A program made the position numbers and the translations under genes. This document shows, in pieces, positions 134-46,077 of a stretch of 64,000 nucleotides of DNA (position 1 is the first letter of the stretch; every line of letters starts with the position of its first letter). Where the stretch lies: contig NZCW01000007.1 of the NCBI GenBank assembly GCA_002688435.1, forward strand, positions 9,269 to 73,268. Reading direction: 5' to 3'. Below the pieces are notes generated by a model. It worked only from the letters and a program-made list of their open reading frames with translations. It did not search any database and had not been told where the DNA came from. Source of the DNA: Dehalococcoidales bacterium (GTDB lineage Bacteria; Chloroflexota; Dehalococcoidia; Dehalococcoidales; RBG-16-60-22).

Positions 134-503
134 TTTCAGCCTCTATGCTGCTATCGAGTCGGTGAGTGATATTTTCTAGACCCCGGTCAAAGACCTTCTT
201 TGTACGTAGTGAAACCTCGTCGCCCATTAATATTCGGACTTTATCAACCTTTTGCCATTCGCCACCTAAAGCAAGCAAAGAGCCAATTTCGAAAAACCCT
301 GTGGCTATATCAATTGATTGAGAAAGCTGGCACCACTCATGGAGATAATCTCTTACTTTCCAGTCTTCATCACTATTATCGATGATAAATAGTTCAGTAC
401 CAGATTTCTTTGGCGTGCTATCACGGGATTCTCCAAGTCTGGTTCCAAGTAACTAATCCCCTAAACCCAGTTGATCCTTTTTACTTTTCTTAGATTTACT
501 CAT
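134..503 (-). pseudogene. N-terminal relic of a PLD-domain/helicase-type (restriction- or defence-associated) protein
   Basis: ATG at 503, in-frame TAG at 455-453, then ...GTELFIIDNSDEDWKVRDYLHEWCQLSQSIDIATGFFEIGSLLALGGEWQKVDKVRILMGDEVSLRTKKVF...SIEAENEK. This resembles the N-termini of PLD-nuclease/helicase fusion proteins. The similarity stops near 140, where the YbaN-like gene starts in another frame. Confidence 0.5.
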
Positions 504-643
504 TAGATAGTCTTGTCATTTTCCAATCCACTAGGAAGTCCTTATAGCTGAGGAAATTATACACCTGTGGCCGTTTGTCAACAAGGAATATTTTTATCCT
601 TGATTCGTTCTGCTTTTTTCGAATGTAGTATTGGAACCATCCA

Positions 644-742
644 TGTATTACGTCATCCGAAGCCCTCAGCTTGGGGTAAACTATTTTTTAAAATTCAATT
701 AATCGTGGGGATTATCTTTGGGAATAGTTTCGCACATCCCTA
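644..742. repeat. Copy A of a ~100-bp repeat; matches the right half of the 235-bp inverted-repeat element at 40301-40401
   Basis: Aligned by eye: 3 substitutions plus a 2-nt T-run length difference over ~100 bp. Same orientation as the 40.3 kb copy. It ends in the same ...TTTCGCACATCCCTA terminus. Weaker similarity may extend left to about 603. Confidence 0.85.
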
Positions 743-4532: not shown

Positions 4533-5319
4533 AATTATCAGGAATGAGCCGGTTCTAAAAGAGTTGGCACGGCGCCATGCCCGGAGTATCTCCGGCAGCT
4601 GGCTCATCTGGCTGAGATGCCCGGAAATCGCTCGGGAAGTCCGCCCGGGACAATTCGTCATGGTACGCTGCGGGGAAAAGTTAACCTTGCCACGCCCGTT
4701 CAGCGTACACCGGGTAAAGGAGAACAGGGTGGCCCTTTTCTTCACCGTCTGGGCTGACGGCCAGGGCACTCACTGGCTATCACGGCGTAAAGCCGGCGAC
4801 AGTCTGGAGCTATTCGGGCCACTGGGCAACGGCTATGATATTTACCGCGCTTCCAAAAACCTGCTGCTGGTCGGCGGTGGCATGGGCGTGGCCCCGCTGT
4901 ACTTTCTGGGAGAACAGGCACGAGACCAAGGCTATGCGCTAACGCTGCTGCTGGGAGCGCAAACAGCCTCTCAGCTTTACCCGGAAAAACTCCTGCCGTC
5001 CGGAATAGACCTAGTAACCGCTACCGACGACGGGACCGCCGGTAAAAAGGGGTCGGTAAGTGCCCTGCTCCCGGACTATACCAGCCGGGCCGACCAGATT
5101 TTCGCCTGCGGCCCCCGCGCCATGTACCGGGCTATGTCACCGATGCCAGCGCTAAAAGATAAGCCGGTCCAAGTCTCCTTGGAAGCGAGGATGGGCTGCG
5201 GACTCGGTATCTGCTATGGCTGCACCGTCAGGATCAACAACGGTTTGAGACAGGTATGCCAAGACGGCCCGGTCTTCAACCTGAACGACCTCCCGGCAGA
5301 GGAACTAAACCCCATCTAA
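4513..5319 (+). CDS. pyrK: Dihydroorotate dehydrogenase electron-transfer subunit
   Basis: 268 aa, TTG start. Ferredoxin-reductase-like fold with the C-terminal 2Fe-2S motif CGLGICYGCTV...VCQDGPVF. Confidence 0.9.
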   Translation: MKQVTAKIIRNEPVLKELARRHARSISGSWLIWLRCPEIAREVRPGQFVMVRCGEKLTLPRPFSVHRVKENRVALFFTVWADGQGTHWLSRRKAGDSLELFGPLGNGYDIYRASKNLLLVGGGMGVAPLYFLGEQARDQGYALTLLLGAQTASQLYPEKLLPSGIDLVTATDDGTAGKKGSVSALLPDYTSRADQIFACGPRAMYRAMSPMPALKDKPVQVSLEARMGCGLGICYGCTVRINNGLRQVCQDGPVFNLNDLPAEELNPI

Positions 5320-5341
5320 ACTTCTGTCCCTCACTGCTCTT

Positions 5342-6194
5342 CTAGAGTGAGGTGTCTTTGCCCGCCCACCGCCTCTCTTTCAGCCACTGCTTGCGGGCGG
5401 AGTAAAAGGTGTCCCACTTCACTTGGCCTATGGGCAGAGTCATACCGCCGTCCACGCTCAGGCTAGTGCCGGTAACCATCAGTGCCCGGTCCGAGGCCAG
5501 AAACACCACTGCATCCGCCTGGTCTTCCGGCAGAATGAAGTCCTGCAAGGCCGTGGCCAGACGCATCTCTTCCTTGACCTCGGGTGTCATCCGGCTCTAC
5601 ACCACCTCGGTCAGCGTGGAGCCGGGACAGACGGCGTTGACATTTATTTTATAAGGCCCCAACTCGAAAGCGGCGTGCCGGGTAAAGCCCAGGACGGCCG
5701 CCTTGGCCGCGCTGTAAGCTATTCCTCCGTACATGGTCATCCTCAGCCCAGCAATGGAGGCCATGTTCACTATTTTGCCGCCGCCCCCCTTTTTCATGAC
5801 CTCGGCCACCGCCTTAGTGCAGTTGAAGAGCCCTTTTAGATTGATGTCCATCGTCCAGTCCCATTCGGCGACTGGCATGTCTTCCAGCAACCAAGCATGG
5901 TCGCCCCCCCCACACATTATTCACTAGGACGTCAATCCCGCCCCATTCGGTAACCATACGGTCGACCATCCCTGTGACTTCAGCTTCTTTCAGCACGTTA
6001 GCGTGGAAAGCCATCGCCTTGGCGCCCAGTTTTTCTATCTCCTGGGCTGTCTCCTCGGCATTATACAGGTCAGCCACCGCCACGCAGGCGCCCTCTCGGG
6101 CCAAGGCCAGACAGCACGCTTTGCCCAAGCCGCGGCCGCTCCCTGTCACCAGCGCTTTCTTCCTTTCCAGCCCGGCATACATCGGGTCAGGCAT
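5342..6194 (-). pseudogene. Short-chain dehydrogenase/reductase (FabG-like), disrupted
   Basis: Three consecutive ORFs (5814-6194, 5597-5917, 5342-5590) together give a full SDR: TGSGRGLG, NNVWGG, YSAAKAAV, PG..T. There is a +1 frameshift in a run of 8 G (plus-strand C8 at 5904-5911; 7 would restore the frame) and an in-frame TAG at 5599-5597. Confidence 0.8.
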
Positions 6195-6306
6195 AGGTCC
6201 ACCTCCATTATTTCATGCGGAATCCCCGTCCCTATTTTACACCTTGATCCGGTTCTCCACCACTCTTGTTTTTCGCTTAAAGAAAGTGTGATAAACCAGC
6301 ACCCGG

Positions 6307-6470
6307 CTACAAACTCAGCAGCCGGGCCGGGTTTGTTTTCACCATCTGGGTAATTTCCTCTTCGCCGAGGTCACCCCAGAGCATAGAGCTGATGAATCTT
6401 CTCAGGCTCTCCGCTGCGGGAGATTGTATGGTCAAGCCCTTGGCCTATCGCCGCTATTTAGGGCAGGGTG
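6307..6470 (-). pseudogene. C-terminal fragment of an amidohydrolase-type gene (frameshifted relic)
   Basis: The minus strand reads ...GDLGEEEITQMVKTNPARLLSL* (stop at 6309-6307), a typical amidohydrolase-superfamily C-terminus. The upstream part (...EPEKIHQLYALG) is in a different frame, and no intact N-terminal region exists. Confidence 0.4.
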
Positions 6471-6539
6471 TATTCAAGCATGACCTCATCTCGTTAAATC
6501 CTGTTTATTTTGAAGGCCATTCAATATCAGGTGGCTTTA

Positions 6540-6567
6540 ATTATAGTCCTACTTACGCAATTGTCAA
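6540..6567 (-). promoter_or_regulatory. Sigma70-type promoter (TTGACA-16-TATAAT) with no intact gene downstream
   Basis: Minus strand: TTGACA (6567-6562), a 16-nt spacer, TATAAT (6545-6540). It fires toward the amidohydrolase relic. Confidence 0.5.
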
Positions 6568-6645
6568 TACCCTGTGGTCCGCTTATTTTCCCTTATCTTC
6601 CCTCTTTCTCTTATAATATGTTTTAGCCGTAAGAGGAGGTGTGCT

Positions 6646-7062
6646 ATGGTCATCACTGGGAAAATCAGCCTGAAGAGCCGGGGAGAATGTGATATTCTAG
6701 ATATCACACCCCAAGTAGCGCAGCAGGTCACCAAAGCGGAGATAAATAGCGGCGTGGTCACCTTGTTTGTCGCCGGCTCCACCGCCGGCCTGACCACTAT
6801 TGAATTTGAGCCCGGCCTGATCTCTGATTTTCAGAGCGTATGGGAGCGCGTTGCCCCCAAAAGTATCCCCTATAACCACGACCGCCGCTGGGGCGACGGT
6901 AATGGCTATTCCCACGTCCAGGCCTCACTATTGGGCGCCTCACTGGTCGTCCCTTTTCATAAACAAAAATTAACCCTAGGCACCTGGCAGCAGATAGTGG
7001 TGGTGGACTTTGATAACCGACCGCGGTCAAGACAGATCATCGTGCAGATTATGGGAGATTAG
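6646..7062 (+). CDS. YjbQ/UPF0047 family protein (secondary thiamine-phosphate synthase-like)
   Basis: I prefer the ATG at 6646, preceded by GAGGAGG, over the track start at 6574. MVITGKISLKSRGECDILDITPQV...GTWQQIVVVDFDNRPRSRQIIVQIMGD is typical of YjbQ. Confidence 0.85.
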   Translation: MVITGKISLKSRGECDILDITPQVAQQVTKAEINSGVVTLFVAGSTAGLTTIEFEPGLISDFQSVWERVAPKSIPYNHDRRWGDGNGYSHVQASLLGASLVVPFHKQKLTLGTWQQIVVVDFDNRPRSRQIIVQIMGD

Positions 7063-8003: not shown

Positions 8004-8692
8004 CAAACACTCTACATAGATTCGGAAAGCCGGATGAGCTTAAGGATGATTATATTGCCTTCACGCTGGTATGCCCCGGCAAGAATGATATAGGTTCAAT
8101 AGAAAGGGCACGTGACTTCTTGAAGATTGCCCTTAAATACAATCCGGTTAATTTTGCGGCTGAGTCCCGCCATGGTCCCGTGTTCAGACCAGAGAAGAAC
8201 CTCAATCTTTTCCGGTTATACCTCAGAGGGCGGAAAGAAATTGTATCACCAGAACTGGTAATGGACGAGATGGAACCACCGGCACATGCAGTGGTCGTAT
8301 TCAGCAAGAAGCAGGCTCTCGAAGAATTCCTCAAGGAAATCAAGGAAATTGATCTTGGGCTATCAGTGAATGTGTCGTCCTTGGTCGAAGACTTTAAAGA
8401 AATAGCTCAACGTATAGGCATTTCCCCTCACTCGATTAACTACTCACTGGGTTTCAGAGGAAATTTATATCGTTTACCCGAACAGCAAGTACTAGCGCTT
8501 ACTACCATGTGTGGCCATGGCCTTATCGCTAGCAGCTTCGCTAAGAAGATGATAGACAGGGTAAAAGAAAGACGGCTGGCCCCGGAAAAAGCAGCCCGGT
8601 ATATGGCCAAGTTATGCGTGTGTGGTGCTTTCAATACGTCCCGGGCGGAGCGCATACTTCATGAGGCCCGGATGTCGAAATCGAAGGCATAA
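8000..8692 (+). CDS. Uncharacterised protein, translationally coupled to the preceding Fe-S protein
   Basis: TTG start overlapping the upstream stop by 4 nt. 230 aa. Cys-containing motifs MCGHGLI and LCVCGAFN near the C-terminus. No family recognised. Confidence 0.6.
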   Translation: MTNTLHRFGKPDELKDDYIAFTLVCPGKNDIGSIERARDFLKIALKYNPVNFAAESRHGPVFRPEKNLNLFRLYLRGRKEIVSPELVMDEMEPPAHAVVVFSKKQALEEFLKEIKEIDLGLSVNVSSLVEDFKEIAQRIGISPHSINYSLGFRGNLYRLPEQQVLALTTMCGHGLIASSFAKKMIDRVKERRLAPEKAARYMAKLCVCGAFNTSRAERILHEARMSKSKA

Positions 8693-31722: not shown

Positions 31723-33099
31723 TTGATGGGAACTAGACCAGCACAAGCAATCTGGAACGCCGCTTTAGGCGAGTTGCAGGTCCAAGTAAGCAAACCGAAC
31801 TACCGTACTTGGCTGGAAAAAACGACCGGCGTGAGCTATCAGGACGAACAGTTTGTCGTCAGCGCGCCGAATGTCTTTGTCGCCGAATATCTGAACCGGA
31901 ACCAGCGCTCACTGATTGAAAAAACGCTAATCGGCATCACCGCCTCCCCTAATATCAGGATAGTCTTCCAAGTAGACGGCAAGTATAAAAACTCGTCTGA
32001 GGCATACGCTACTGCCAGGAAACACTCTCCGGCTGCGCCCTTATCCTCCTCGGTATTCAAATCAAATTATATTTTCGATACGTTCATCGTTGGTAAAGGT
32101 AACCATTTTGCTTACGCCGCCGCCCAAGAGGTAGCCCTGAGCCCTCGGCAAAGCTATAACCCGCTGTTTATCTACGGGGGAGTGGGGCTGGGCAAGACCC
32201 ATCTCCTGCATGCCATCGGCCAAGCCGTCACCGCCCACCACACTAACGTGATTTGCCTCAGTGCCGAGCAGTTCACCAACGAGTTCGTGAATACCGTCCG
32301 GGAAAGAAATGTGGACGAATTCCGCCGTAAATACCGCAACGCCGACATGCTGCTTGTGGATGATATCCACTTCATCAGCGGCAAGGAGCAGACTGAGGAA
32401 TGCTTTTTCCATATCTTTAACGAGCTGCATCACGCCAACCGCCAAGTAGTACTGACCAGTGACCAGCCGCCGAAATCTATAACCTCACTCACTGAACGGC
32501 TGCGTTCCCGTTTCGAATGGGGACTACTGGTGGACATCCAGCTACCTGACTTCGAAACGCGCCTAGCTATACTGGAGGCCAAAGTCAAGCAGAGAGGTGT
32601 GGAAGCTACCTTGGAGATACTAGAATTTCTGGCCCGGCGTTCCCTACAAAACATCCGGGAACTGGAAGGTTCCCTAAACCGCGTCATCGCTTACGCCCGG
32701 TTATTCCAGACAGCGCCCACCATTGAGCTGGCGACCAGAGCACTGGAGAATATCTCCGACAAAGAACCCGAAAGCACCGCATCAATTACGTTGGGTCTGG
32801 TGACCAAGGCAGTTGCCGACAGTTTCCAGCTATCAGTGGAGGACCTAAAAAGCCGCCGGAGAGATAAAGAGACCGCTTTAGCCCGCCGGGTGGGGATGTA
32901 CATTCTCCGCCAAGAGACCAATTTCTCGGTAGCCCAGATTGGGCAGGAACTGGGGGGCCGGGACCCCTCGTCAGTCACCAACGCCTGCCAGAACATCACC
33001 GGTGATATTACAGCCAACCCTTATCTCCGACGCAAGATTCTGGATATTCAAAAAAGAATCAATTCTGTGCCAAATCCAAAGAGCCGCAGAGCCAAATAA
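31723..33099 (+). CDS. dnaA: Chromosomal replication initiator DnaA
   Basis: 458 aa, with TTG at 31723 or ATG at 31726. Walker A GGVGLGKTHLLHA, a box VII region, and a C-terminal DNA-binding domain. Confidence 0.97.
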   Translation: MMGTRPAQAIWNAALGELQVQVSKPNYRTWLEKTTGVSYQDEQFVVSAPNVFVAEYLNRNQRSLIEKTLIGITASPNIRIVFQVDGKYKNSSEAYATARKHSPAAPLSSSVFKSNYIFDTFIVGKGNHFAYAAAQEVALSPRQSYNPLFIYGGVGLGKTHLLHAIGQAVTAHHTNVICLSAEQFTNEFVNTVRERNVDEFRRKYRNADMLLVDDIHFISGKEQTEECFFHIFNELHHANRQVVLTSDQPPKSITSLTERLRSRFEWGLLVDIQLPDFETRLAILEAKVKQRGVEATLEILEFLARRSLQNIRELEGSLNRVIAYARLFQTAPTIELATRALENISDKEPESTASITLGLVTKAVADSFQLSVEDLKSRRRDKETALARRVGMYILRQETNFSVAQIGQELGGRDPSSVTNACQNITGDITANPYLRRKILDIQKRINSVPNPKSRRAK

Positions 33100-33169
33100 T
33101 CCTCAAAGCTTCTGTCGCCGGTTTTCTTTTCCCGCGCACCGAACCTTGGCATTCCATTGCAGTCCTAAC

Positions 33170-33416
33170 TCGAGAAAGATTTATATAATGTCTCTGTAAT
33201 TCACCTGTGAGAATTTTGTGAAAATTTTGCCTCCATTTTTATTTTCCCTAAACAGGGATATTGGCTAATGTAGCTTCATTAAGCGGTATATCCCCACTAT
33301 ATTATTATGATAATCATTACTAAGAATAAGAAGGTGATAAATTATTAGAATAGTATATAATTATACTGATTATATTTACTGATATTTGTAGAGGCGATAG
33401 GAATGAGGATAGTAGA
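33170..33416. other. AT-rich intergenic region downstream of dnaA; candidate oriC unwinding element
   Basis: About 250 bp, with 33280-33400 dominated by A/T (far below the window average by eye). It contains short tandem motifs (TACTGATTATATT/TACTGATATTTG). Only degenerate DnaA-box-like 9-mers were seen, e.g. ATATCCCCA. Confidence 0.5.
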
Positions 33417-34682
33417 GTGATTGATTGGGTAGGAATAGTGGTAAAAGCTGGTAAAGGTGGGGATGGTGCCATAAGCTTCCGCCGGGAAAAGTTTGTGCCT
33501 TACGGTGGGCCGGACGGTGGCGATGGGGGTGTGGGAGGTAGTATCGTGGTGAAGGCCGACTCGACAGTAACCGACCTGCGAAAATTCAGGACGAAAAGAA
33601 TGTATCGGTCAGGAAACGGCGAGGGCGGACGGGGTAAAAAGAAGCACGGTCGGAACGGGGAAGCTGTGGTTCTGTCGGTACCCGCTGGCACCGTGGTATC
33701 CCGGAAGTGCCCGGCAGGTGATGATGCTATCATCGCTGACCTAGACGAGCCGGGCCAGTCGGTAGTGGTGGCCCGGGGCGGAAAAGGAGGACTGGGTAAT
33801 ACTCACTTCAGCTCGTCGACTAATCAGGCGCCGCGGATAGCCCAGCACGGTGAGTCCGGAGAAGAGAGCTCGGTAGTACTGGAATTGAGGCTGATTGCGG
33901 ACGCTGGTATCATTGGCTATCCCAACGTAGGTAAGTCAACTTTACTGGCCGCGGCCTCGGCCGCTAGGCCGAAAATTGCCAGCTATCCTTTCACTACGCT
34001 GGAGCCGATGTTGGGCGCGGTGGAAGACGGCCGGCAAGGCTTTGTCTTGGCGGAGATACCGGGACTGGTAGAGGACGCTCACTTGGGCCGGGGCCTGGGT
34101 CACGGTTTTCTGCGCCATATTATGCGGACCAGATTGCTGGTCCACTTGGTCGATGGTAGCGCTGAGTCGCCGCTGGATAATATGGTGCGGGTGAACAACG
34201 AGCTCAGTTTGTTTGACTCGGCGCTGGCGCAGAAGCTGCAGCTGGTGGCGGTCAATAAGATTGATTTGCCTCAGGTGCGAGCCCGCCAGGCCGGGATAGG
34301 AGATACCTTTGGTAAAGCTGGCGTTAAGGTCCTCTTCGTATCGGCAGAGACTGGGGATGGGGTTGACCGGCTTATGGCGGCAGTGGCCGATATGCTGGTG
34401 GGGATTACTGTGGAGAAGGAGACCGGTGAGAGGATACCCCGAAAGATTTTTCGTCCTCAGCCTAGGGGCACCGGCGCTGGTGTGCACCGGGAGGGGGACA
34501 CCTTTATCGTTGAAGCTCCGGGCATGGGACGCTTGGTTGCTGAGGGAGGGACAGTCAGTCCCGAGGTGCGCTATCAGTTGAAGAGACGGCTTACCCGGCT
34601 GGGTATTGGCCGGACGCTGCAAAAGGCCGGGATAAAACCGGGCGATAAAGTACGCTGCGGGACTCTGGAGTGGGAGTGGTAA
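33417..34682 (+). CDS. obg: GTPase Obg/CgtA
   Basis: 421 aa, GTG start. VKAGKGGDGAISFRREKFVPYGGPDGGDGG, G1 motif GYPNVGKST, and a C-terminal OCT domain. Confidence 0.95.
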   Translation: MIDWVGIVVKAGKGGDGAISFRREKFVPYGGPDGGDGGVGGSIVVKADSTVTDLRKFRTKRMYRSGNGEGGRGKKKHGRNGEAVVLSVPAGTVVSRKCPAGDDAIIADLDEPGQSVVVARGGKGGLGNTHFSSSTNQAPRIAQHGESGEESSVVLELRLIADAGIIGYPNVGKSTLLAAASAARPKIASYPFTTLEPMLGAVEDGRQGFVLAEIPGLVEDAHLGRGLGHGFLRHIMRTRLLVHLVDGSAESPLDNMVRVNNELSLFDSALAQKLQLVAVNKIDLPQVRARQAGIGDTFGKAGVKVLFVSAETGDGVDRLMAAVADMLVGITVEKETGERIPRKIFRPQPRGTGAGVHREGDTFIVEAPGMGRLVAEGGTVSPEVRYQLKRRLTRLGIGRTLQKAGIKPGDKVRCGTLEWEW

Positions 34683-38948: not shown

Positions 38949-39803
38949 TTATTGAATCGGGCCTTTCTTGAGTCGGGCCTGCAGCTTTTCGTGTTCCCCT
39001 TCCAGCATGCGATAGCAGTGTTTCTCCTCAGGGAACTTGCCGCTCCTGATGTCTTCGGCGTACTCGGTGAAAGCTTTCACGATAATTTCACCCACGTTGG
39101 CGTATCTCTTGACGAACTTAGGGGTAAAAGCCTCAAACATGCCCAGTATGTCACCATTAATCAGGACTTGGCCGTCGGTATACATGCCAGCGCCGATGCC
39201 CAGTACCGGGATTTTAACTGTTTCGGTAATTATTTTACCCACTTCTGGAGGGACGGCTTCCACTAGGAGGGCGAAAGCGCCCGCCTTTTCTACGGCCGCG
39301 GCGTCTTGCAGTAGTTCCATGGCGGTTTCTACGGTGAGGCCTTGGGCTTTAAAGCCGCCCAGTTGGCCCGAGCTCTGGGGAGTCAGGCCGATATGGCCCA
39401 TGACCGACATCCCGCTATCCACAATGCCTTTGATTTGAGAGATTAAACACCGGCCGCCTTCCAGTTTGACGGCGTCAACACTAGCCTCTTTATAAAACCG
39501 GCCCGAATTATAGATGGCGTTCTCCGTGGATAGCTGGTAGGATAGGAAAGGCAAATCACCGATAACGAAGGTGTTAGGTGCTCCTCTCCTCACATCTTCG
39601 GCATGGGCCACCATCTGATCCATGGTCATCGGAACGGTCCCGGAGTAACCGTGGACCACCATGCCGGCGCTGTCACCGACTAGGATCATGTCGATACCGG
39701 CTTTTTCCACAAAGCTGGCCATGGGAAAGTCATAGGCGGTGATGTAGGTGATTTTTTCACCCCTCTTTTTCATTTCGTGGAAGTTAAGAATGGATTTCTT
39801 CAT
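38949..39803 (-). CDS. panB: 3-methyl-2-oxobutanoate hydroxymethyltransferase
   Basis: 284 aa. ITAYDFPMASFVEKAGIDMILVGDS..., VKLEGG, GHIGLTPQS. Confidence 0.93.
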   Translation of the reverse strand: MKKSILNFHEMKKRGEKITYITAYDFPMASFVEKAGIDMILVGDSAGMVVHGYSGTVPMTMDQMVAHAEDVRRGAPNTFVIGDLPFLSYQLSTENAIYNSGRFYKEASVDAVKLEGGRCLISQIKGIVDSGMSVMGHIGLTPQSSGQLGGFKAQGLTVETAMELLQDAAAVEKAGAFALLVEAVPPEVGKIITETVKIPVLGIGAGMYTDGQVLINGDILGMFEAFTPKFVKRYANVGEIIVKAFTEYAEDIRSGKFPEEKHCYRMLEGEHEKLQARLKKGPIQ

Positions 39804-40047: not shown

Positions 40048-40076
40048 ATTATCCCACCCCACACTGTCCGTGTCAA
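40048..40076 (-). promoter_or_regulatory. Sigma70-type promoter upstream of panB
   Basis: Minus strand: TTGACA (40076-40071), a 17-nt spacer, GATAAT (40053-40048). Confidence 0.6.
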
Positions 40077-40091
40077 GAGAATAACACGCTT

Positions 40092-40159
40092 CTTATTACT
40101 CAATCTTAGTTGGTGTCCATATCCACCACCACCACCACCAACCAAGATTGAGTAATAAG
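40092..40159. mobile_element. 68-bp miniature inverted-repeat element with 8-bp target-site duplication
   Basis: 22-bp TIRs at 40092-40113 and 40138-40159 with 1 mismatch. (CCA)6 core. Perfect direct repeats ACACGCTT at 40084-40091 and 40160-40167. Confidence 0.8.
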
Positions 40160-40166
40160 ACACGCT

Positions 40167-40401
40167 TAGGGATGTGCGAAACTATTCCCAAAGCTAATTC
40201 GTAACTAATCTTAATACTACTGTGCGTCGACCGAGATTCCTTCTTTCAAATCCTCTAGTTTTGCCACCTTACACCTATTAGTATTATTAAGCTTGTTTCT
40301 TGTATTACGTCTTCCGAAGCCCTCAGCTTGGGGTAAACTATTTTTTTTAAAATTCAATTAATCGTGGGGATTAGCTTTGGGATTAGTTTCGCACATCCCT
40401 A
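40167..40401. mobile_element. 235-bp non-autonomous inverted-repeat element with 5-bp target-site duplication
   Basis: 32-bp TIRs TAGGGATGTGCGAAACTATTCCCAAAGCTAAT (40167-40198) and its inverse (40370-40401), with 1 mismatch. Flanked by ACGCT at 40162-40166 and 40402-40406. No ORF inside. A half-copy lies at 644-742. Confidence 0.8.
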
Positions 40402-40430
40402 ACGCTAGATAAATAATGCGTAATTGCTCA

Positions 40431-40757
40431 TTAGCGCAATTGCGCATTTGCTCTCTTGAGTAGTTCCTCGTCGGTCCTGACTCCCTGTACGTCTAGTTTG
40501 GAACGGCGGAAAGCCCGGACCATGGCCTCAATGAGCTTTGTCTTGCTCAGCTTTTTCCCGCCGCTGAACTTAGCCCTAGAAGCTAGGCTTTCTAGGTAGG
40601 CGTCTTCGCCGCGGTGCAGGAATACGGATAGCTTTATCATGGTTGTTCCGGATGGTTCGGCGGGAGGCTGCTTTTTGACGGCGGGTCGGTCTGTACCGGT
40701 GAGGCGATCCAAGGCATTCCCATAAGCAAGATCCTCAGTGATACTGACTCTTTTCAT
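40431..40757 (-). CDS. Small ParA partner, predicted ribbon-helix-helix (ParG/omega-like) DNA-binding protein
   Basis: 108 aa. ATGA overlap with the parA stop. A disordered basic N-terminal part is followed by the beta-alpha-alpha pattern KLSVFLHRGEDAYLESLASRAKF...SKTKLIEAMVRAF. Confidence 0.6.
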   Translation of the reverse strand: MKRVSITEDLAYGNALDRLTGTDRPAVKKQPPAEPSGTTMIKLSVFLHRGEDAYLESLASRAKFSGGKKLSKTKLIEAMVRAFRRSKLDVQGVRTDEELLKRANAQLR

Positions 40758-41530
40758 TTCATCACCTCTCTGGAAAGTAGTCGGTAGGCGTTGGCTCCAT
40801 CGCTTGTCGGGGCGTAGGTCAGGATTGACCCTCCAGCGGCCGGGGCTTCCTTGAAACGGACACTGCTGGGGATAAGGGCGTCAAAGACTCTTATCCGGTC
40901 ACCAAAGGCTTTGCGGGTTACCTCGATAACCTCTTTGCTGTGCAAGGTGCGGGAATGAGTCATGGTGAATAGTATGCCGGAAATCTCCAGTTTTGGGTTA
41001 ATTCTTTCCCTTACCCGGATAACCGTTCTCAGCAGGAGTGTCAGTCCTTTCATCGCCAGAAAATCGGCCTGCAGGGGTATCAGTATTCGGTCGGCAGCGG
41101 ACAGGGCATTGACGGTTAGCAGTCCGAGACTGGGTAGGCAGTCAATCAGAATAAAATCGTACTGCTGGCGTATCGGCTGGAGCATCTCTTTTAACACCTG
41201 TTCCCGGGTAAACGCGCCCACCAGGTCAAGCTCGGCCTGCGACAGCTCTATGTTAGCCGGAACGAGGTCAATACTAGGGTTACCGGTCCGGGCGGTAACG
41301 TCACTGATTGATGGGTTTTTCTTGTCCCGGATGGCAGCCGCCAGGACATTATAGCTGGTGCGGGTGAGTTTGTCGGGGTCAAGACCTAGGGTAATGGTGA
41401 GGCTGGCCTGAGGGTCCCAGTCGACCAGTAGCACCCGCTGGTTTTGTTCGCTTAGACCGTCGGCCAAGGCGGCGGCGGTGGTAGTCTTACCCACGCCGCC
41501 TTTCTGGTTGGCGATGCAGATAACCGGCAC
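40754..41530 (-). CDS. parA: ParA/Soj-family partition ATPase
   Basis: 258 aa, GTG start. Deviant Walker A NQKGGVGKTTT. ...LLVDWDPQASLT... Confidence 0.92.
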   Translation of the reverse strand: MPVICIANQKGGVGKTTTAAALADGLSEQNQRVLLVDWDPQASLTITLGLDPDKLTRTSYNVLAAAIRDKKNPSISDVTARTGNPSIDLVPANIELSQAELDLVGAFTREQVLKEMLQPIRQQYDFILIDCLPSLGLLTVNALSAADRILIPLQADFLAMKGLTLLLRTVIRVRERINPKLEISGILFTMTHSRTLHSKEVIEVTRKAFGDRIRVFDALIPSSVRFKEAPAAGGSILTYAPTSDGANAYRLLSREVMK

Positions 41531-41733: not shown

Positions 41734-42903
41734 ATGAGACTATCCAGAAAGATGTCACGATTGGGTACTGAGACGGCATTTAAAGTTCTGGCCCAGGCCC
41801 AATCTCTTGAAGCTAATGGGGTAGATGTAGTTCATCTGGAAATTGGTGAGCCTGACTTCATTACACCTAAGTACATTTGTGAGGCGGCCACCGATGCATT
41901 GGATAAGGGTTACACTCATTACTGTAACTCTCAGGGATTGCTTCCACTGCGTACTGAAATTGCTAAAAAATACGAAAAAACATACGGTATTTCGGTAGAC
42001 CCAGAGTGCGTTGTCGTGACCTCTGGTGCTAAGCCCATCATGTTCTACTCAATCTTAGCACTGCTTGAGGAAGGAGATGAAGTAATATACCCTAATCCTC
42101 TTTTCCCGATTTATGAATCAATGATTAATTTTACTGGGGCTAAAGCAGTGCCTATCCAACTTCGCGAGGAACAAGATTTTCGTTTTGACATAGCTGAATT
42201 GAGAGCTAAGGTTACACCACGTACCAAGCTTATTATCATCAACTCGCCTCATAATCCAACTGGCAGCGTTTTAGAGACGGATGATATCCTTGCTATCGCA
42301 GATATTGCTCAAAAGTATGGTATAACTATCCTTTCTGATGAAATCTATGAAAATATTATTTATGAGGGAAAGCACAATAGTATTGCTAGCCTACCGGGCA
42401 TGTTGGACAGGACGATACTGATAAGCGGCTTTTCCAAGGCCTACGCTATGACTGGTTGGCGTTTAGGCTATGCGGTGATGCCATCGGAACTGATTGATCC
42501 TGTAGTACGCCTAATCGTAAACAGCGTCTCCTGCACCGCACCGTTTATCCAGTACGCTGGCATTGAGGCACTAACCGGCTCACAAGACAGCGTACGTAAA
42601 ATGGTAGATGAATTCAGAAAGCGACGGGACCTGATCGTAGACGGACTGAATGCTATAGCAGGTATAAGCTGCTTGCGTCCTAAGGGTGCTTTCTACGTGT
42701 TCCTTAATGTAAAAAAATTGGGGACGGATTGCAGACAGGTGGCTAATTTTCTCTTAAATGAAGCTGGCGTAGCCACACTGGCTGGCGCCGATTTTGGCAT
42801 GTATGGTGAAGGCTACATCAGACTATCCTACGCTACCTCATTGGAAAATCTAAAGAAGGGATTGGATAGGATAAAAGCTGCAGTAGTGAAGATTACGGCT
42901 TAG
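41734..42903 (+). CDS. PLP-dependent class I/II aminotransferase (aspartate aminotransferase-like)
   Basis: 389 aa. NPHNPTG and SGFSKAYAMTGWRLGY (PLP lysine). A 60-nt sample counted about 38% GC. Confidence 0.88.
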   Translation: MRLSRKMSRLGTETAFKVLAQAQSLEANGVDVVHLEIGEPDFITPKYICEAATDALDKGYTHYCNSQGLLPLRTEIAKKYEKTYGISVDPECVVVTSGAKPIMFYSILALLEEGDEVIYPNPLFPIYESMINFTGAKAVPIQLREEQDFRFDIAELRAKVTPRTKLIIINSPHNPTGSVLETDDILAIADIAQKYGITILSDEIYENIIYEGKHNSIASLPGMLDRTILISGFSKAYAMTGWRLGYAVMPSELIDPVVRLIVNSVSCTAPFIQYAGIEALTGSQDSVRKMVDEFRKRRDLIVDGLNAIAGISCLRPKGAFYVFLNVKKLGTDCRQVANFLLNEAGVATLAGADFGMYGEGYIRLSYATSLENLKKGLDRIKAAVVKITA

Positions 42904-42939
42904 TGTAGAGGTTGTTTTGAAACCATTCTTTTTGCACTT

Positions 42940-43356
42940 CTATTCGTTCGACCATCTGTACAGAAATACCAATTTCAAGTTTTTCATAATATCCATCAAT
43001 TGCTCTCCGTCTATCAAATTAATCGGATACGTACCTGTTTTTTTAGTCTCTTTCCTAGCTTCTCCGCTATAACTTCTCGTTGTTATAAATAATCCTTTGT
43101 AAGCCCGCCCATCATATCCGCCTCTAAAATCCCTAATGCCTGACGGTGATATACTTCCTTTACACCTTTTACATTGGCACATTACATGAAATGAAAGTAC
43201 GTTACCGAATCTGAATACTTCCTTACCGTCTATGCCACCATCCCTACTAGGGATGGTGGCATAGACCTGCTTAAACCCTAACTCCCGTAGAATTCTTTGA
43301 TATAATTTTTCGAATTTGAACGGGTCCATCTCTCGGGGAAGTAATATTCTGGCCAA
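42940..43356 (-). CDS. Stand-alone Mrr-type restriction endonuclease catalytic domain
   Basis: 138 aa, TTG start. FEKLYQRILRELGF...SRDGGIDG...MCQCKRCKGSISPSGIRDF...GLFITT fits the Mrr_cat pattern (D...QxK). No N-terminal DNA-binding domain. Confidence 0.7.
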   Translation of the reverse strand: MARILLPREMDPFKFEKLYQRILRELGFKQVYATIPSRDGGIDGKEVFRFGNVLSFHVMCQCKRCKGSISPSGIRDFRGGYDGRAYKGLFITTRSYSGEARKETKKTGTYPINLIDGEQLMDIMKNLKLVFLYRWSNE

Positions 43357-43554
43357 TTGTTACATCGGTGCGCCGGCCCATTTGTCTCTATTTAGGACAT
43401 TGACAAAATCTCAAAACAGCACTAAACTCCAGTCGTAACTTGTGAAATAGCCTGTCAATCGAAATCATAACACGATTTAGAGGACTATTGGACAGGAGAG
43501 TCCACGGTGGCGTCTGAAGGCTGGCGTTGGTAAAGCATAGAAGGAGGATAGTTA

Positions 43555-44133
43555 ATGTTTACATTGCAAATAGGTGATAAAGCCTGCGATTTTGCGTTAC
43601 CGGCAACTGACGGTAAAACCTACAGCCTGGCTGACTTTGAGATGGCTAAGGTGCTGGTAGTTTTTTTTACCTGTAACCACTGTCCTTTCGTGATCGGATC
43701 AGATGAAGTCACACGCGCAACGGCGCTTCGTTTCAAGGATAAGGGCGTTGCCTTTGTTGGTATCAATTCCAACAGCGAACAAACCTATCCGGAGGATGAT
43801 TTTGATAATATGGTGAAACGGATGAAGGAGCATGATTTTCCGTGGGTTTACGTCCGGGACAAAAGCCAGGATGTAGCGAAGGCTTATGGCGCACTCAGGA
43901 CGCCGCATTTTTATGTGTTTAACCAGGAGCGAAGACTCGTCTATACTGGCCGCGGGGTGGATAATCCGCGTAGTACGGCCGTAATGAAGACCAATGATTT
44001 GGAAAAAACCTTGGATGAAATCCTGATAGGTAAGCCGGTAAGTACGCCCCTGACCAATCCGATTGGATGCAACGTTAAGTGGGAAGGAAAGGATGCTCAT
44101 TGGATGCCACCCGAAGCGTGCGATCTAGTCTAG
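43555..44133 (+). CDS. Thioredoxin-fold (AhpC/TSA / TlpA-like) protein
   Basis: 192 aa. ...[14 protein letters not shown]... redox motif. ...RTPHFYVF... Confidence 0.8.
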
Positions 44134-44282
44134 TGGTGACCTATGGATAGTTGTAAAAGAACTAGGGGAGCAGCAGCGCTCCCCTATCCATTATGTAAAA
44201 TACACCGATAGTTATGGTGAGATCTTTATTTCCATAACACGTAGTTATTGGTGGCATTAATAATAGGAGGTATGAAATCAGG

Positions 44283-45182
44283 ATGGATCTTAGAGAAAGA
44301 CTGCGAGATACTGATGAGATACTGCTTCACTATGTACCGCTTCACTCGCTACTTGCTGACTGGGGTAAAGATTTGGAGTCTCATCTATCAGAGTGGATTA
44401 TTAATAACCCTGAGAAATATCAAGACGCACTACGACAATCATTCGCTGCTGGTTGTGATTTTGCTTGTACAATGACACAATCAAGCTCACCATGGAGAGC
44501 GGAGCCCTTTGGTTTACGGGATAGAATACATGAGCTTAACTGGAGGTCAGCTAAATTGGCCAAGGAGGTTACTCCACCAGGTCGTTATGTACTCGCGATA
44601 GTGTCAACTACAAATCCCGATTTCTTAGAACCATTGGGTAACATGACATATGATGAGGTCTATGAAGGCTATAAAGAGCAGATATCAGCCTTATTAGAAG
44701 GTGGGATTGATGTTTTTCTCATTGTTGGGAACCATATAGATGAAGCGTTGATAGCTATCGAGGTAGCACGCGATCTCTGCGACGTTCCCATAATATCCCA
44801 AAATATATTCTATTCGACTAAAAATGGGTTCAGAACAATGATGGGGGATAACCCTATAAAAGCATCAGCTAAGCTCGAAGAAGTAGGGGTTGATGTCATC
44901 GGTGGTAGCTGTGGACTAATGACTAAATCACTCGATACTTCAGAATGGTATCCAGCAGCTACCACTCTTATCAAAGAAATGAGAAAAGGTTGCCGCGGGC
45001 CATTATCTATACAACCGGATGCTGGCTTAGCGCAATTGGCAGACGGTAAGACCGTTTATCCGGTATCACCTGAAGAGATGGTCGACGAGGTTAAAGCTTG
45101 GGTTGATGCCGGCGCACGTATTGTAGGAGGGTGTTGCGGCACAAGTTTAGAACATTATAGAAAGATTTCAGCCGCGACATGA
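44283..45182 (+). CDS. Stand-alone homocysteine S-methyltransferase-domain protein (MetH Hcy-module-like)
   Basis: 299 aa. Zn-ligand pattern VIGGSCG ... IVGGCCGTSLEHYRKI is typical of the S-methyl_trans (Hcy-binding) domain. Divergent N-terminus. Low GC. Confidence 0.75.
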   Translation: MDLRERLRDTDEILLHYVPLHSLLADWGKDLESHLSEWIINNPEKYQDALRQSFAAGCDFACTMTQSSSPWRAEPFGLRDRIHELNWRSAKLAKEVTPPGRYVLAIVSTTNPDFLEPLGNMTYDEVYEGYKEQISALLEGGIDVFLIVGNHIDEALIAIEVARDLCDVPIISQNIFYSTKNGFRTMMGDNPIKASAKLEEVGVDVIGGSCGLMTKSLDTSEWYPAATTLIKEMRKGCRGPLSIQPDAGLAQLADGKTVYPVSPEEMVDEVKAWVDAGARIVGGCCGTSLEHYRKISAAT

Positions 45183-45321
45183 AGGACTGTAGTTAAGAGG
45201 TTTAATTTGGGTGGATTTGGTAAAATATGCGCGTTAGCTGTGCGTAACATTTGCATGCACAGCACGTGGGACTGAAAGTAGTGGTATATATCAATAACTA
45301 TCGTACTTGGTCGTTTAAATA

Positions 45322-45346
45322 AGCAGCGGTCTACCAGACCGCTGCT
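45322..45346 (-). terminator. Stem-loop (11-bp stem) likely terminating minus-strand transcription from the tRNA-Ala side
   Basis: AGCAGCGGTCT-ACC-AGACCGCTGCT. On the minus strand it is followed by TATTTAAA. Confidence 0.45.
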
Positions 45347-45721
45347 ATAGGGCTATATAACGTAGCCTTCCAGCTTACTACACTGCCTCTACTATGACTT
45401 TAATGGATTGTGGATCATCGAGCTCTTTGGCTTGCTCCTTGGTTAGATAGATGGTCATTGGGTGGTCTTCCTTGTCTTCCTGGAATCTCCAAGTGCCCGG
45501 TGTTTCTTTCTCTTTGAAAAAGGTACTTTTGATGAGCGACGGCTTTGTACCAAAAGTGCTTGAGAAATGGGACTTTTAATACAAAGCCATGAGCGACGAT
45601 AAATCTGTGAGACAATGTTTAAGCGTATCTATGTAGAGGAAGGTAGAGTGACTAGGGCGGAACTCGACGCGCCTCTCGCTATTATCGTAGCCAGCGCTAA
45701 AGGTTCGGGAGCTGTTACGAA

Positions 45722-45797
<76 letters not shown>

Positions 45798-45933
45798 AGA
45801 TTAACGTTGAGATTATAGCATATTCTCAGGAAATATGGTCCTTCCGGTAAGGAAGGATGATAACCTTACTGTTTGGACTAATGAGATGGAGTGTTTAATT
45901 CTCTTTTTTAAGGAGAGTCATGTGGGGTGTCTG

Positions 45934-45961
45934 AGAGGGGCGTTAGCCCCTCTTTATTTTT
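45934..45961 (+). terminator. Intrinsic-terminator-like hairpin with no obvious upstream plus-strand gene
   Basis: AGAGGGGC-GTTA-GCCCCTCT followed by TTATTTTT. Confidence 0.4.
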
Positions 45962-46077
45962 ATCCCCCGTCCTCTAGCGGGTTAACATAACATTATGTAC
46001 GCTCCTCTTAATAGGGGAAGGGCATTAAGGGGGTGGGTTTCCTGATAAATATTAAGGGGGGATGAGGTCACCTGTTC

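Follow-up and report, generated by a model that had tools for sequence, protein, structure and literature searches.

Evidence for two successive insertions of non-autonomous inverted-repeat elements upstream of panB in an uncultured marine Dehalococcoidales bacterium

We analyzed a 64,000-nucleotide stretch of contig NZCW01000007.1 (assembly GCA_002688435.1, positions 9,269 to 73,268), referred to here as the window, in which two short inverted-repeat elements lie between panB, the gene for ketopantoate hydroxymethyltransferase, and an open reading frame (ORF) of 108 amino acids (ORF108). The source names of the contigs and proteins identify the host as an uncultured marine Dehalococcoidia/Dehalococcoidales bacterium. 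Our results leave little doubt that both elements are non-autonomous DNA transposons, or MITEs (miniature inverted-repeat transposable elements), that inserted one after the other into the ORF108-panB spacer. The original prediction, made from the sequence alone, had described a 68-bp element with 22-bp arms, a (CCA)6 core, and 8-bp direct repeats and a 235-bp element with 32-bp arms (1 mismatch) and ACGCT on both sides, and all of these features are in the sequence at the coordinates listed in Table 1. The arms of the small element can be extended to 25 nt (40091-40115 and 40136-40160, 96% complementary, with the 22-nt arms inside), and those of the large element can be read as a 33-nt pair (40166-40198 and 40370-40402, 97% complementary) directly flanked on both sides by ACGCT. 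Neither sequence recurs at a rate expected by chance: the small element's 22-mer has 2 matches in the window versus 0 expected, and the large element's 18-mer has 3 versus 0.03. Both elements had been called noncoding, and the only ORFs within them, of 57 and 46 amino acids, have no Pfam match. The 46-amino-acid ORF is the sole one inside the large element, which contains no transposase gene.

The case for insertion comes from a comparison of filled and empty alleles. The filled allele was found in seven contigs from four sources (ENA, NCBI, JGI, and Logan) with zero mismatches to the window's spacer; six of them cover all 627 nt of it, and the seventh (L026) begins within the large element and covers 392 nt. 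Because the seven contigs match without a mismatch, the filled spacer is not an assembly artifact. An exact-protein look-up of the window's PanB returned the filled allele only and no empty site, and empty sites were reached via PanB homologues that are 99% (P0121) and 98% (P0122) identical. The contigs that encode these homologues keep the gene order aminotransferase, ParA-like gene, 108-amino-acid ORF, panB, DUF1638 gene, and RACo gene. Both elements are absent from seven orthologous contigs of these close relatives (PanB 98 to 99%), in which the spacer measures 311 nt versus 627 nt in the window, and the difference of 316 nt equals 68 + 8 + 235 + 5. An exact 85-nt string, which is the window sequence with both elements and one copy of each duplication deleted, is present in six of the contigs (PanB 99%); the seventh (PanB 98%) has the same string with three single-nucleotide polymorphisms. 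The empty site, ...AATAACACGCTAGATAAATAATG..., which can also be given as ...GAGAATAACACGCTAGATAAATAATGCG..., reads as had been predicted and holds a single ACACGCT and a single ACGCT. Metagenome-assembled genomes with this locus include GCA_030744715.1 (filled) and GCA_002998485.1 (empty). Apart from the insertion, filled and empty spacers differ at 1 position in 311 nt, and therefore the insertions are recent.

The empty-site sequence also gives the order of events, as had been proposed: the large element came first and the small element second, because ACGCT was duplicated and then ACACGCT together with the large element's first T. The history that we propose starts from the ancestral site AATAACACGCTAGAT, which is the sequence present in the relatives. 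The 235-bp element would have entered through a 5-bp staggered cut that duplicated ACGCT, the duplicated bases being visible in the sequence and the cut being the presumed mechanism. The 68-bp element then entered through an 8-bp staggered cut across the boundary, duplicating ACACGCTT and leaving the large element intact. The sequence places the target of this last step at seven bases of flank and the T with which the large element begins; ACGCT at 40162-40166 also serves as the large element's left 5-bp duplication, and 40167 is its first base. The original prediction had called the elements nested, which overstates the 1-bp overlap between the small element's target and the large element; the elements themselves abut.

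Both inverted-repeat sequences occur at other sites as well, with unrelated flanks and target duplications of their own; like the other checks that the original prediction had proposed, this one favors mobile DNA. In the family of the large element, the conserved tip is TAGGGATGTGCGAAAC. The shared 18-mer, TAGGGATGTGCGAAACTA, was found in 13 genome stretches, 11 of them from metagenome-assembled genomes of Dehalococcoidia/Chloroflexi (one genome per species; marine, lake, peat, and sediment sources), and in 103 stretches of JGI metagenomes. In every case, similarity starts from the T of TAGGG, with at least 91 distinct outer flanks or insertion contexts in all. Many ends share a module of ~95 nt composed of the 18-mer, an (A/T)AGCTA block near position 26, ~45 variable bases, and then TTCACCCCAAGCT, which lies ~75 to 90 nt inward at many ends. 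This module, including TTTACCCCAAGCT, is present at the large element's right end (inward from 40401). Of the 13 independent inward-facing end pairs examined (235 bp to 6.9 kb, the window's included), nine are directly flanked by direct repeats, which measure 5 bp in five (window, L007, L018, L062, and L082), 6 bp in two (L131 and L156), 7 bp in one (L155), and 8 bp in one (L016). One 526-bp element occupies two different sites (L007 and L015). Members of the family include MITEs of ~250 bp, cassettes that carry genes and no transposase, and, at 3.8 and 6.9 kb, complete copies. The tip had 0 matches in viral contigs, neither element matched the plasmid collection, and literature searches turned up no match to the tip sequence and no paper on MITEs of Dehalococcoidia.

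Several other explanations of these ends were considered and set aside. A promoter-upstream operator was rejected as the primary explanation of the 18-mer given the target duplications and empty sites; many solo ends precede good -35 and -10 boxes (by eye), and a promoter located immediately inside the end of a transposon would fit just as well. Reading the TA of the tip as an IS630-type TA duplication was rejected because the 5-bp repeats of five independent insertions are located outside the TA. Large serine recombinases near ends (L071, L089, and L117) would not account for 5- to 8-bp duplications. IS3/IS481-type transposases near ends in L084, L060, and L130 were likewise rejected as movers, the one in L084 belonging to an unrelated insertion sequence (IS). 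This IS3-family element (L084 ~575-2100) lies ~480 nt inside a large-family end and has its own inverted repeats, TGT...CAGCGAAATGGGACAC (TGT...GGGACAC); other ISs therefore accumulate in these regions. The likeness of TAGGGATG to the terminal repeat of maize Ac is one that we take to be a coincidence.

Some ends of the family have unusual surroundings. A 257-bp MITE in L143 shares its left flank with the copy in L082 and its right flank with the copy in L052, and it is either a recombination product of two MITE copies or a chimeric assembly. In several marine contigs (L047, L079, L134, L051, and L098), a large-family end abuts what appears by eye to be the 3' half of a tRNA gene on the reverse strand. 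Two ends in the same orientation, 0.8 to 4.7 kb apart, were seen in each of L047/L079, L058, and L100.

The window itself holds a third end of the large-element family. The original prediction saw no autonomous partner in the window, and there is indeed no transposase of either family there, but it missed a solo end 187 nt upstream of pyrR (Table 1). This 99-nt end is 92% identical to the large MITE's right end (40301-40401, also given as 40301-40416), and no partner for it was found within 9 kb upstream in identical contigs. It borders a 38% GC stretch (positions 1 to 742) with a decayed ORF. That ORF (140-510, minus strand) has an internal stop (MSKSKKSKKDQLGLGD*LLGTRLGES...KVRILMGDE...) and no Pfam match; its start resembles the N terminus of a methylase beside the right end of the L048 element, and the ORF is likely what remains of a cargo gene.

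Most copies of the large-element family lack a transposase. The cassette in L018 encodes a CCG-domain protein and no transposase, and that in L062 (4,937 bp, duplication GGCAT), also without a transposase, encodes a Shedu SduA_C-domain protein, a radical-SAM protein (of the B12/radical-SAM type), and an unknown protein. In L012, DarT and a macro-domain protein lie immediately inside a family end. A search for longer copies that carry a transposase had been proposed as a check, and such copies exist for the large element. L155 9151-12982 is a complete 3,832-bp copy with the repeat TTCCCCT and contains a 142-amino-acid ORF, the transposase, an N6_N4 methyltransferase, and a 237-amino-acid ORF; L156 holds a complete ~6.9-kb copy between thyA and rpoB, with the repeat AACTAT and the same type of transposase. 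In L048, 13.7 kb between inward-facing ends encodes ResIII plus a methylase, Fic, a Panacea antitoxin, and an M78-HTH protein, together with a 420-amino-acid DDE transposase whose Pfam hits, like the precomputed domains, are DUF772, DDE_Tnp_1, and DDE_Tnp_1_6; one end of this stretch lies at the contig edge, which precludes a check of the duplication. The L048 transposase has ~160 homologues, several labeled Chloroflexota by their source. All five independent look-ups of the transposase revealed an exact or near-exact TAGGGATGTGCGAAAC tip facing it at a distance of 0.7 to 3.7 kb, for which the chance expectation, taken as a random 16-mer within ~10 kb, is ~1e-5.

For this transposase, the best NCBIfam match is to NF033551 (IS1182 family), with E values of 1e-39 to 1e-47 and 134 to 160 bits for five members; these scores fall far short of the cut-off of 270 bits and cover only model positions 250 to 485, the C-terminal half. 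The NCBIfam models for IS5, IS1634, IS982, and IS4 all stayed under their cut-offs (IS5 at most 74 bits versus cut-offs of 110 to 275). Because its transposase stays below the curated thresholds, the parent transposon was not filed as an IS1182 or IS5 member. The large element shows the length, inverted repeats, duplication with empty site, lack of its own transposase, and ends shared with a transposase-encoding element that characterize a MITE. From the co-location of these ends with the transposase, we conclude that the large element belongs, as a MITE, to a cargo-carrying, IS1182-like family of transposons of Dehalococcoidia/Chloroflexota, with catalysis by that enzyme as the presumed means of movement. 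The 235-bp element is a deletion derivative of this DDE family, whose transposase has ~420 amino acids; since the element lacks a transposase of its own, such an enzyme would have bound its 32-bp ends and mobilized it in trans.

An alternative source for the large element is the Tn3 family, in which case it would be a Tn3-derived inverted-repeat miniature element (TIME) moved by a Tn3-type TnpA, with the DDE_Tnp_1 transposase as a passenger or an unrelated IS. Tn3-type terminal repeats are ~38 bp long and begin with GGGG. The 5-bp duplications, which are typical of Tn3, would suit such an origin, as would arms of ~32 bp that end in AAGCTAAT, reminiscent of the ...ACGCTAAG inner end of Tn3-type repeats, and a family that carries cargo genes, has given rise to MITEs and cassettes, and includes many solo ends. 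However, the tips read TAGGG and not GGGG, and the duplications reach 8 bp (5 bp in five pairs and 6, 7, or 8 bp in four). The ORFs of at least 550 amino acids in the 116 loci where an exact TAGGGATGTGCGAAACTA end is present include none that resembles a ~1,000-amino-acid TnpA (judged by eye, with Pfam checks for part of them), and no Tn3-type family (PF01526) is listed by Pfam for genes at the look-up loci. Furthermore, the DDE_Tnp_1 protein is the sole transposase in the complete repeat-flanked copies in L155 and L156, and the tip lies near it in all five independent look-ups. We therefore regard a Tn3 origin as very improbable, and we retain the DDE transposon as the parent.

Whether this parent amounts to a family of its own is a separate matter. 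We consider it possible, and only slightly less probable than its opposite, that the large element derives from an undescribed IS1182-like DDE transposon family with defense or toxin-antitoxin cargo that spawns cassettes and MITEs and recurs upstream of pyrR and next to gyrB. The features tied to this proposal are the TAGGGATGTGCGAAAC tips, the ~95-nt module, the 5- to 8-bp duplications, and a conserved partner protein of ~145 amino acids. That protein is encoded at or near the transposase in three long copies (L155 9512-9940, L149 3453-3899, and the L048 element 8201-8662). Its N terminus is coiled-coil-like, its C terminus contains a G(P)GxYxL motif, Pfam gives no match, and it may play an accessory part in the transposon family. 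The passengers in L012, L062, L048, L155, L156, L151, and L010 are mostly of toxin-antitoxin or putative defense types; further types in that set are M78-HTH with DUF4411, PIN with DUF433, and an SDH-type ClpP-like protease, and the methylase found with ResIII is of the N6_N4 type. In the window and in at least three other Dehalococcoidia lineages (L062, L115/L101/L141, and L144), pyrR, followed by pyrB, has a family end a short distance upstream of it, and the flanks and cargo differ. The copy in L018 is 164 nt from gyrB, and the first housekeeping gene that the window's genome has across the low-GC stretch at positions 1 to 742 is gyrB. This recurrence could reflect a preferred landing place or an old, repeatedly remodeled island; if genuine, it would imply some target selection over random insertion.

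The small element has a family of its own, known so far from loci fetched for the large element, where its copies surfaced. The marine contig L047 contains two 117-bp copies in inverted orientation (5138-5254 and 6536-6652) that agree with the window copy in 66 of its 68 positions; their flanks are unrelated, and the similarity ends exactly at the tips. Compared with these, the window copy is the 117-bp element minus a 49-bp internal deletion that creates the (CCA)6 run. The two copies bound a 1,515-bp unit (5138-6652) that has the 8-bp flanking repeat GAAAAAAG and no repeat at its inner junctions. The unit contains an ORF with a CxxCH heme-binding motif (c-type-cytochrome-like) and a broken Rrf2-like fragment, both identified by eye. 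It is a MITE-pair composite transposon, and it independently confirms the 8-bp duplication and shows that the small element can move cargo as a pair. Small-element copies were not found elsewhere in the window, in viral contigs, or in plasmids. Its 16-mer had 19 matches in viral contigs, none of which extends further except a 23-nt single-arm match in L033 that was taken as chance, given its AT-rich phage DNA and lack of an inverted partner. With its short length, terminal inverted repeats, target duplication, empty site, and copies at unrelated sites, the small element has the marks of a MITE.

The small element could conversely be a local palindromic duplication or repair product that arose at the large element's end, an origin that its very short and almost perfectly palindromic sequence, its location exactly at another element's tip, and its slippage-prone (CCA)6 run bring to mind. 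This account is contradicted by the 117-bp version with the same ends, which is present twice in an unrelated marine contig with similarity stopping at the tips. The L047 pair is flanked by an 8-bp duplication of a different sequence, the window copy has a perfect 8-bp duplication, and no extended flanks are common to the L047 copies and the window. A repair product is accordingly very unlikely, and transposition remains our explanation for the small element too. Finally, a native origin of the inverted repeats, whether as structured RNA or as regulatory palindromes (an attenuator, terminator, or operator) belonging to the panB leader or the parA operon, can be dismissed almost entirely: both elements do fold into long hairpins (the single-stranded small element forms a near-perfect one of -21 kcal/mol, z = -11.9 versus shuffles), and a promoter-like site and palindromic repeats adjoin them, but all 316 bp are missing with a precise junction in relatives with 98 to 99% identical PanB, copies with target duplications occupy many unrelated loci, no Rfam family reaches threshold (there are only sub-threshold, microRNA-like hairpin matches), and the ~95-nt end module shows neither a consensus fold (-1.8 kcal/mol) nor any compensatory pairs or covariation. 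This is the reverse of the outcome named in the original prediction as pointing to such structures, namely, no other copies and conservation with compensatory changes.

Some observations weigh against two successive MITE insertions or against parts of that history. No allele with the large element alone (a AATAACACGCT|TAGGG junction without the small element) was seen. In the large-element family, duplication length varies from 5 to 8 bp, 4 of the 13 end pairs have no clean repeat, and most of the ends found (~100) have no detectable partner on their own contig. The transposase is linked to the family by co-location in repeat-flanked elements and never sits tightly between the ends as in a simple IS. 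As for the small element, the fetched loci yielded one other locus with copies (L047) and a doubtful remnant in L050. No autonomous parent of it was found among these loci, in the absence of a dedicated scan, and no transposase lies in the L047 unit or beside any copy found. With respect to current mobility, no transposase of either family is present in the window or in contigs tied to this organism.

Table 1. Coordinates of the two elements, their duplications, and neighboring features in the window
Feature	Position	Strand	Remarks
Solo right end of large-element family	644-742	-	Tip at 742, reads toward lower coordinates; exact 18-mer TAGGGATGTGCGAAACTA at 725-742
panB (ketopantoate hydroxymethyltransferase), downstream of insertions	38949-39803	-	Pfam PF02548, E = 7e-106
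Sigma-70 promoter-like site toward panB	40048-40076	-	TTGACA, 17 nt, TG-extended GATAAT; 11/12, consensus match only
Left 8-bp target-site duplication of small element, ACACGCTT	40084-40091	.	Direct repeat D7, 100% identical
Small 68-bp MITE	40092-40159	.	Arms 40092-40113 and 40138-40159 (22 nt, 1 mismatch), core (CCA)6
Right 8-bp duplication of small element, ACACGCTT	40160-40167	.	Direct repeat
Large 235-bp MITE	40167-40401	.	Arms 40167-40198 and 40370-40401 (32 nt, 1 mismatch)
Right 5-bp target-site duplication of large element, ACGCT	40402-40406	.	Single ACGCT in empty sites
ORF108 (108 amino acids)	40431-40757	-	Overlaps ParA-like ATPase gene (40754-41530) by 4 nt, downstream of it; no Pfam match

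The elements had been placed just upstream of the panB promoter, and a promoter-like site is indeed there: the -35 box of this strong, predicted promoter begins 8 nt from the small element's duplication, and the insertions are situated 8 to 15 nt upstream of that box. On the other side, the ORF108 stop codon is 25 nt from the large element's duplication. Two tandem 16-mers at 40418-40449 (GCGTAATTGCTCATTA and GCGCAATTGCGCATTT) overlap that stop codon, include the perfect palindrome GCGCAATTGCGC, and could be a partition site or operator. The insertions place these 16-mers 316 bp further from the promoter-like site, and 316 bp of hairpin-forming DNA between the predicted -35 box and the ORF108 end with its GCGCAATTGCGC repeats could conceivably alter upstream control of panB or read-through.

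An insertion hotspot at the edge of the parA and low-GC region, which the original prediction had suggested, is not supported here: ORF108 is syntenic in all relatives examined, and the synteny of parA with ORF108 extends to relatives whose PanB is only 90% identical. The recurrent insertion place actually seen for the large-element family is upstream of pyrR. In L163 to L166 (PanB 90 to 93%), a 311-amino-acid gene without a Pfam match lies between ORF108 and panB; it is absent from the window lineage and from the relatives with 98 to 99% identical PanB. The low-GC stretch at 42000-46000 (43 to 46% versus 54% for the window) ends near a tRNA gene (45725-45797) and may be an integrated island, separate from both elements. 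Cumulative GC skew has its minimum at ~32000-34000, where it turns from falling to rising, and gyrB lies just upstream of the window start; the minimum suggests a replication origin or terminus inside the window.

Both elements are ordinary mobile DNA, cleanly documented, and they leave what is known of the mechanism of MITEs unchanged. Dehalococcoidia are usually described as having small, streamlined genomes, and these results show recent transposition in an uncultured, globally sampled marine population of this class. They also provide two precisely bounded MITE families usable as strain markers and for annotation, one of which is tied to a transposon family with toxin-antitoxin or putative defense cargo that current IS family models capture poorly. 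Because the insertions lie directly upstream of the predicted panB promoter, strains with filled and empty sites form a natural pair for studying expression of the pantothenate pathway.

The parent of the large element resembles IS1182- and IS5-type elements in its transposase domains (DUF772, DDE_Tnp_1, and DDE_Tnp_1_6), and some sources label homologues of its transposase "IS5 family transposase." The family tip GGGATGTGCGAA shows a possible resemblance to GGAAGGTGCGAA, the end of Escherichia coli IS5. In contrast to simple ISs, whose usual size is 1.3 to 2 kb, the parent's copies are 3.8 to 13.7 kb long and carry passengers. With TIMEs, the large element has in common a 5-bp duplication, arms of ~32 bp, and cargo-bearing relatives, and it differs in that its tip lacks a GGGG start, no Tn3-type transposase turned up in the loci examined, and duplications in its family vary in length. 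IS1182 itself has been described as heterogeneous (PMC5678879), and ISPse1 makes a 4-bp duplication (PMC3281130), compared with 5 to 8 bp in the large-element family. We use the terms bacterial MITE, mobile insertion cassette (MIC), and transporter IS (tIS) as defined in PMC3129680. Like known MITEs, both elements are short, have terminal inverted repeats and target duplications, lack a transposase, and have relatives elsewhere; the large element has a longer, transposase-carrying relative, and the small element, a deletion derivative of the 117-bp form, is unusually short. The copies in the window carry no gene and are therefore MITEs and not MICs. The elements in L018 and L062 and the L047 composite are, like MICs, cassettes bounded by inverted repeats that contain genes and no transposase, and other members of the large-element family, like tIS, carry a transposase together with passengers, such as the methyltransferase in L155 and ResIII with its methylase, Fic, and Panacea in L048.

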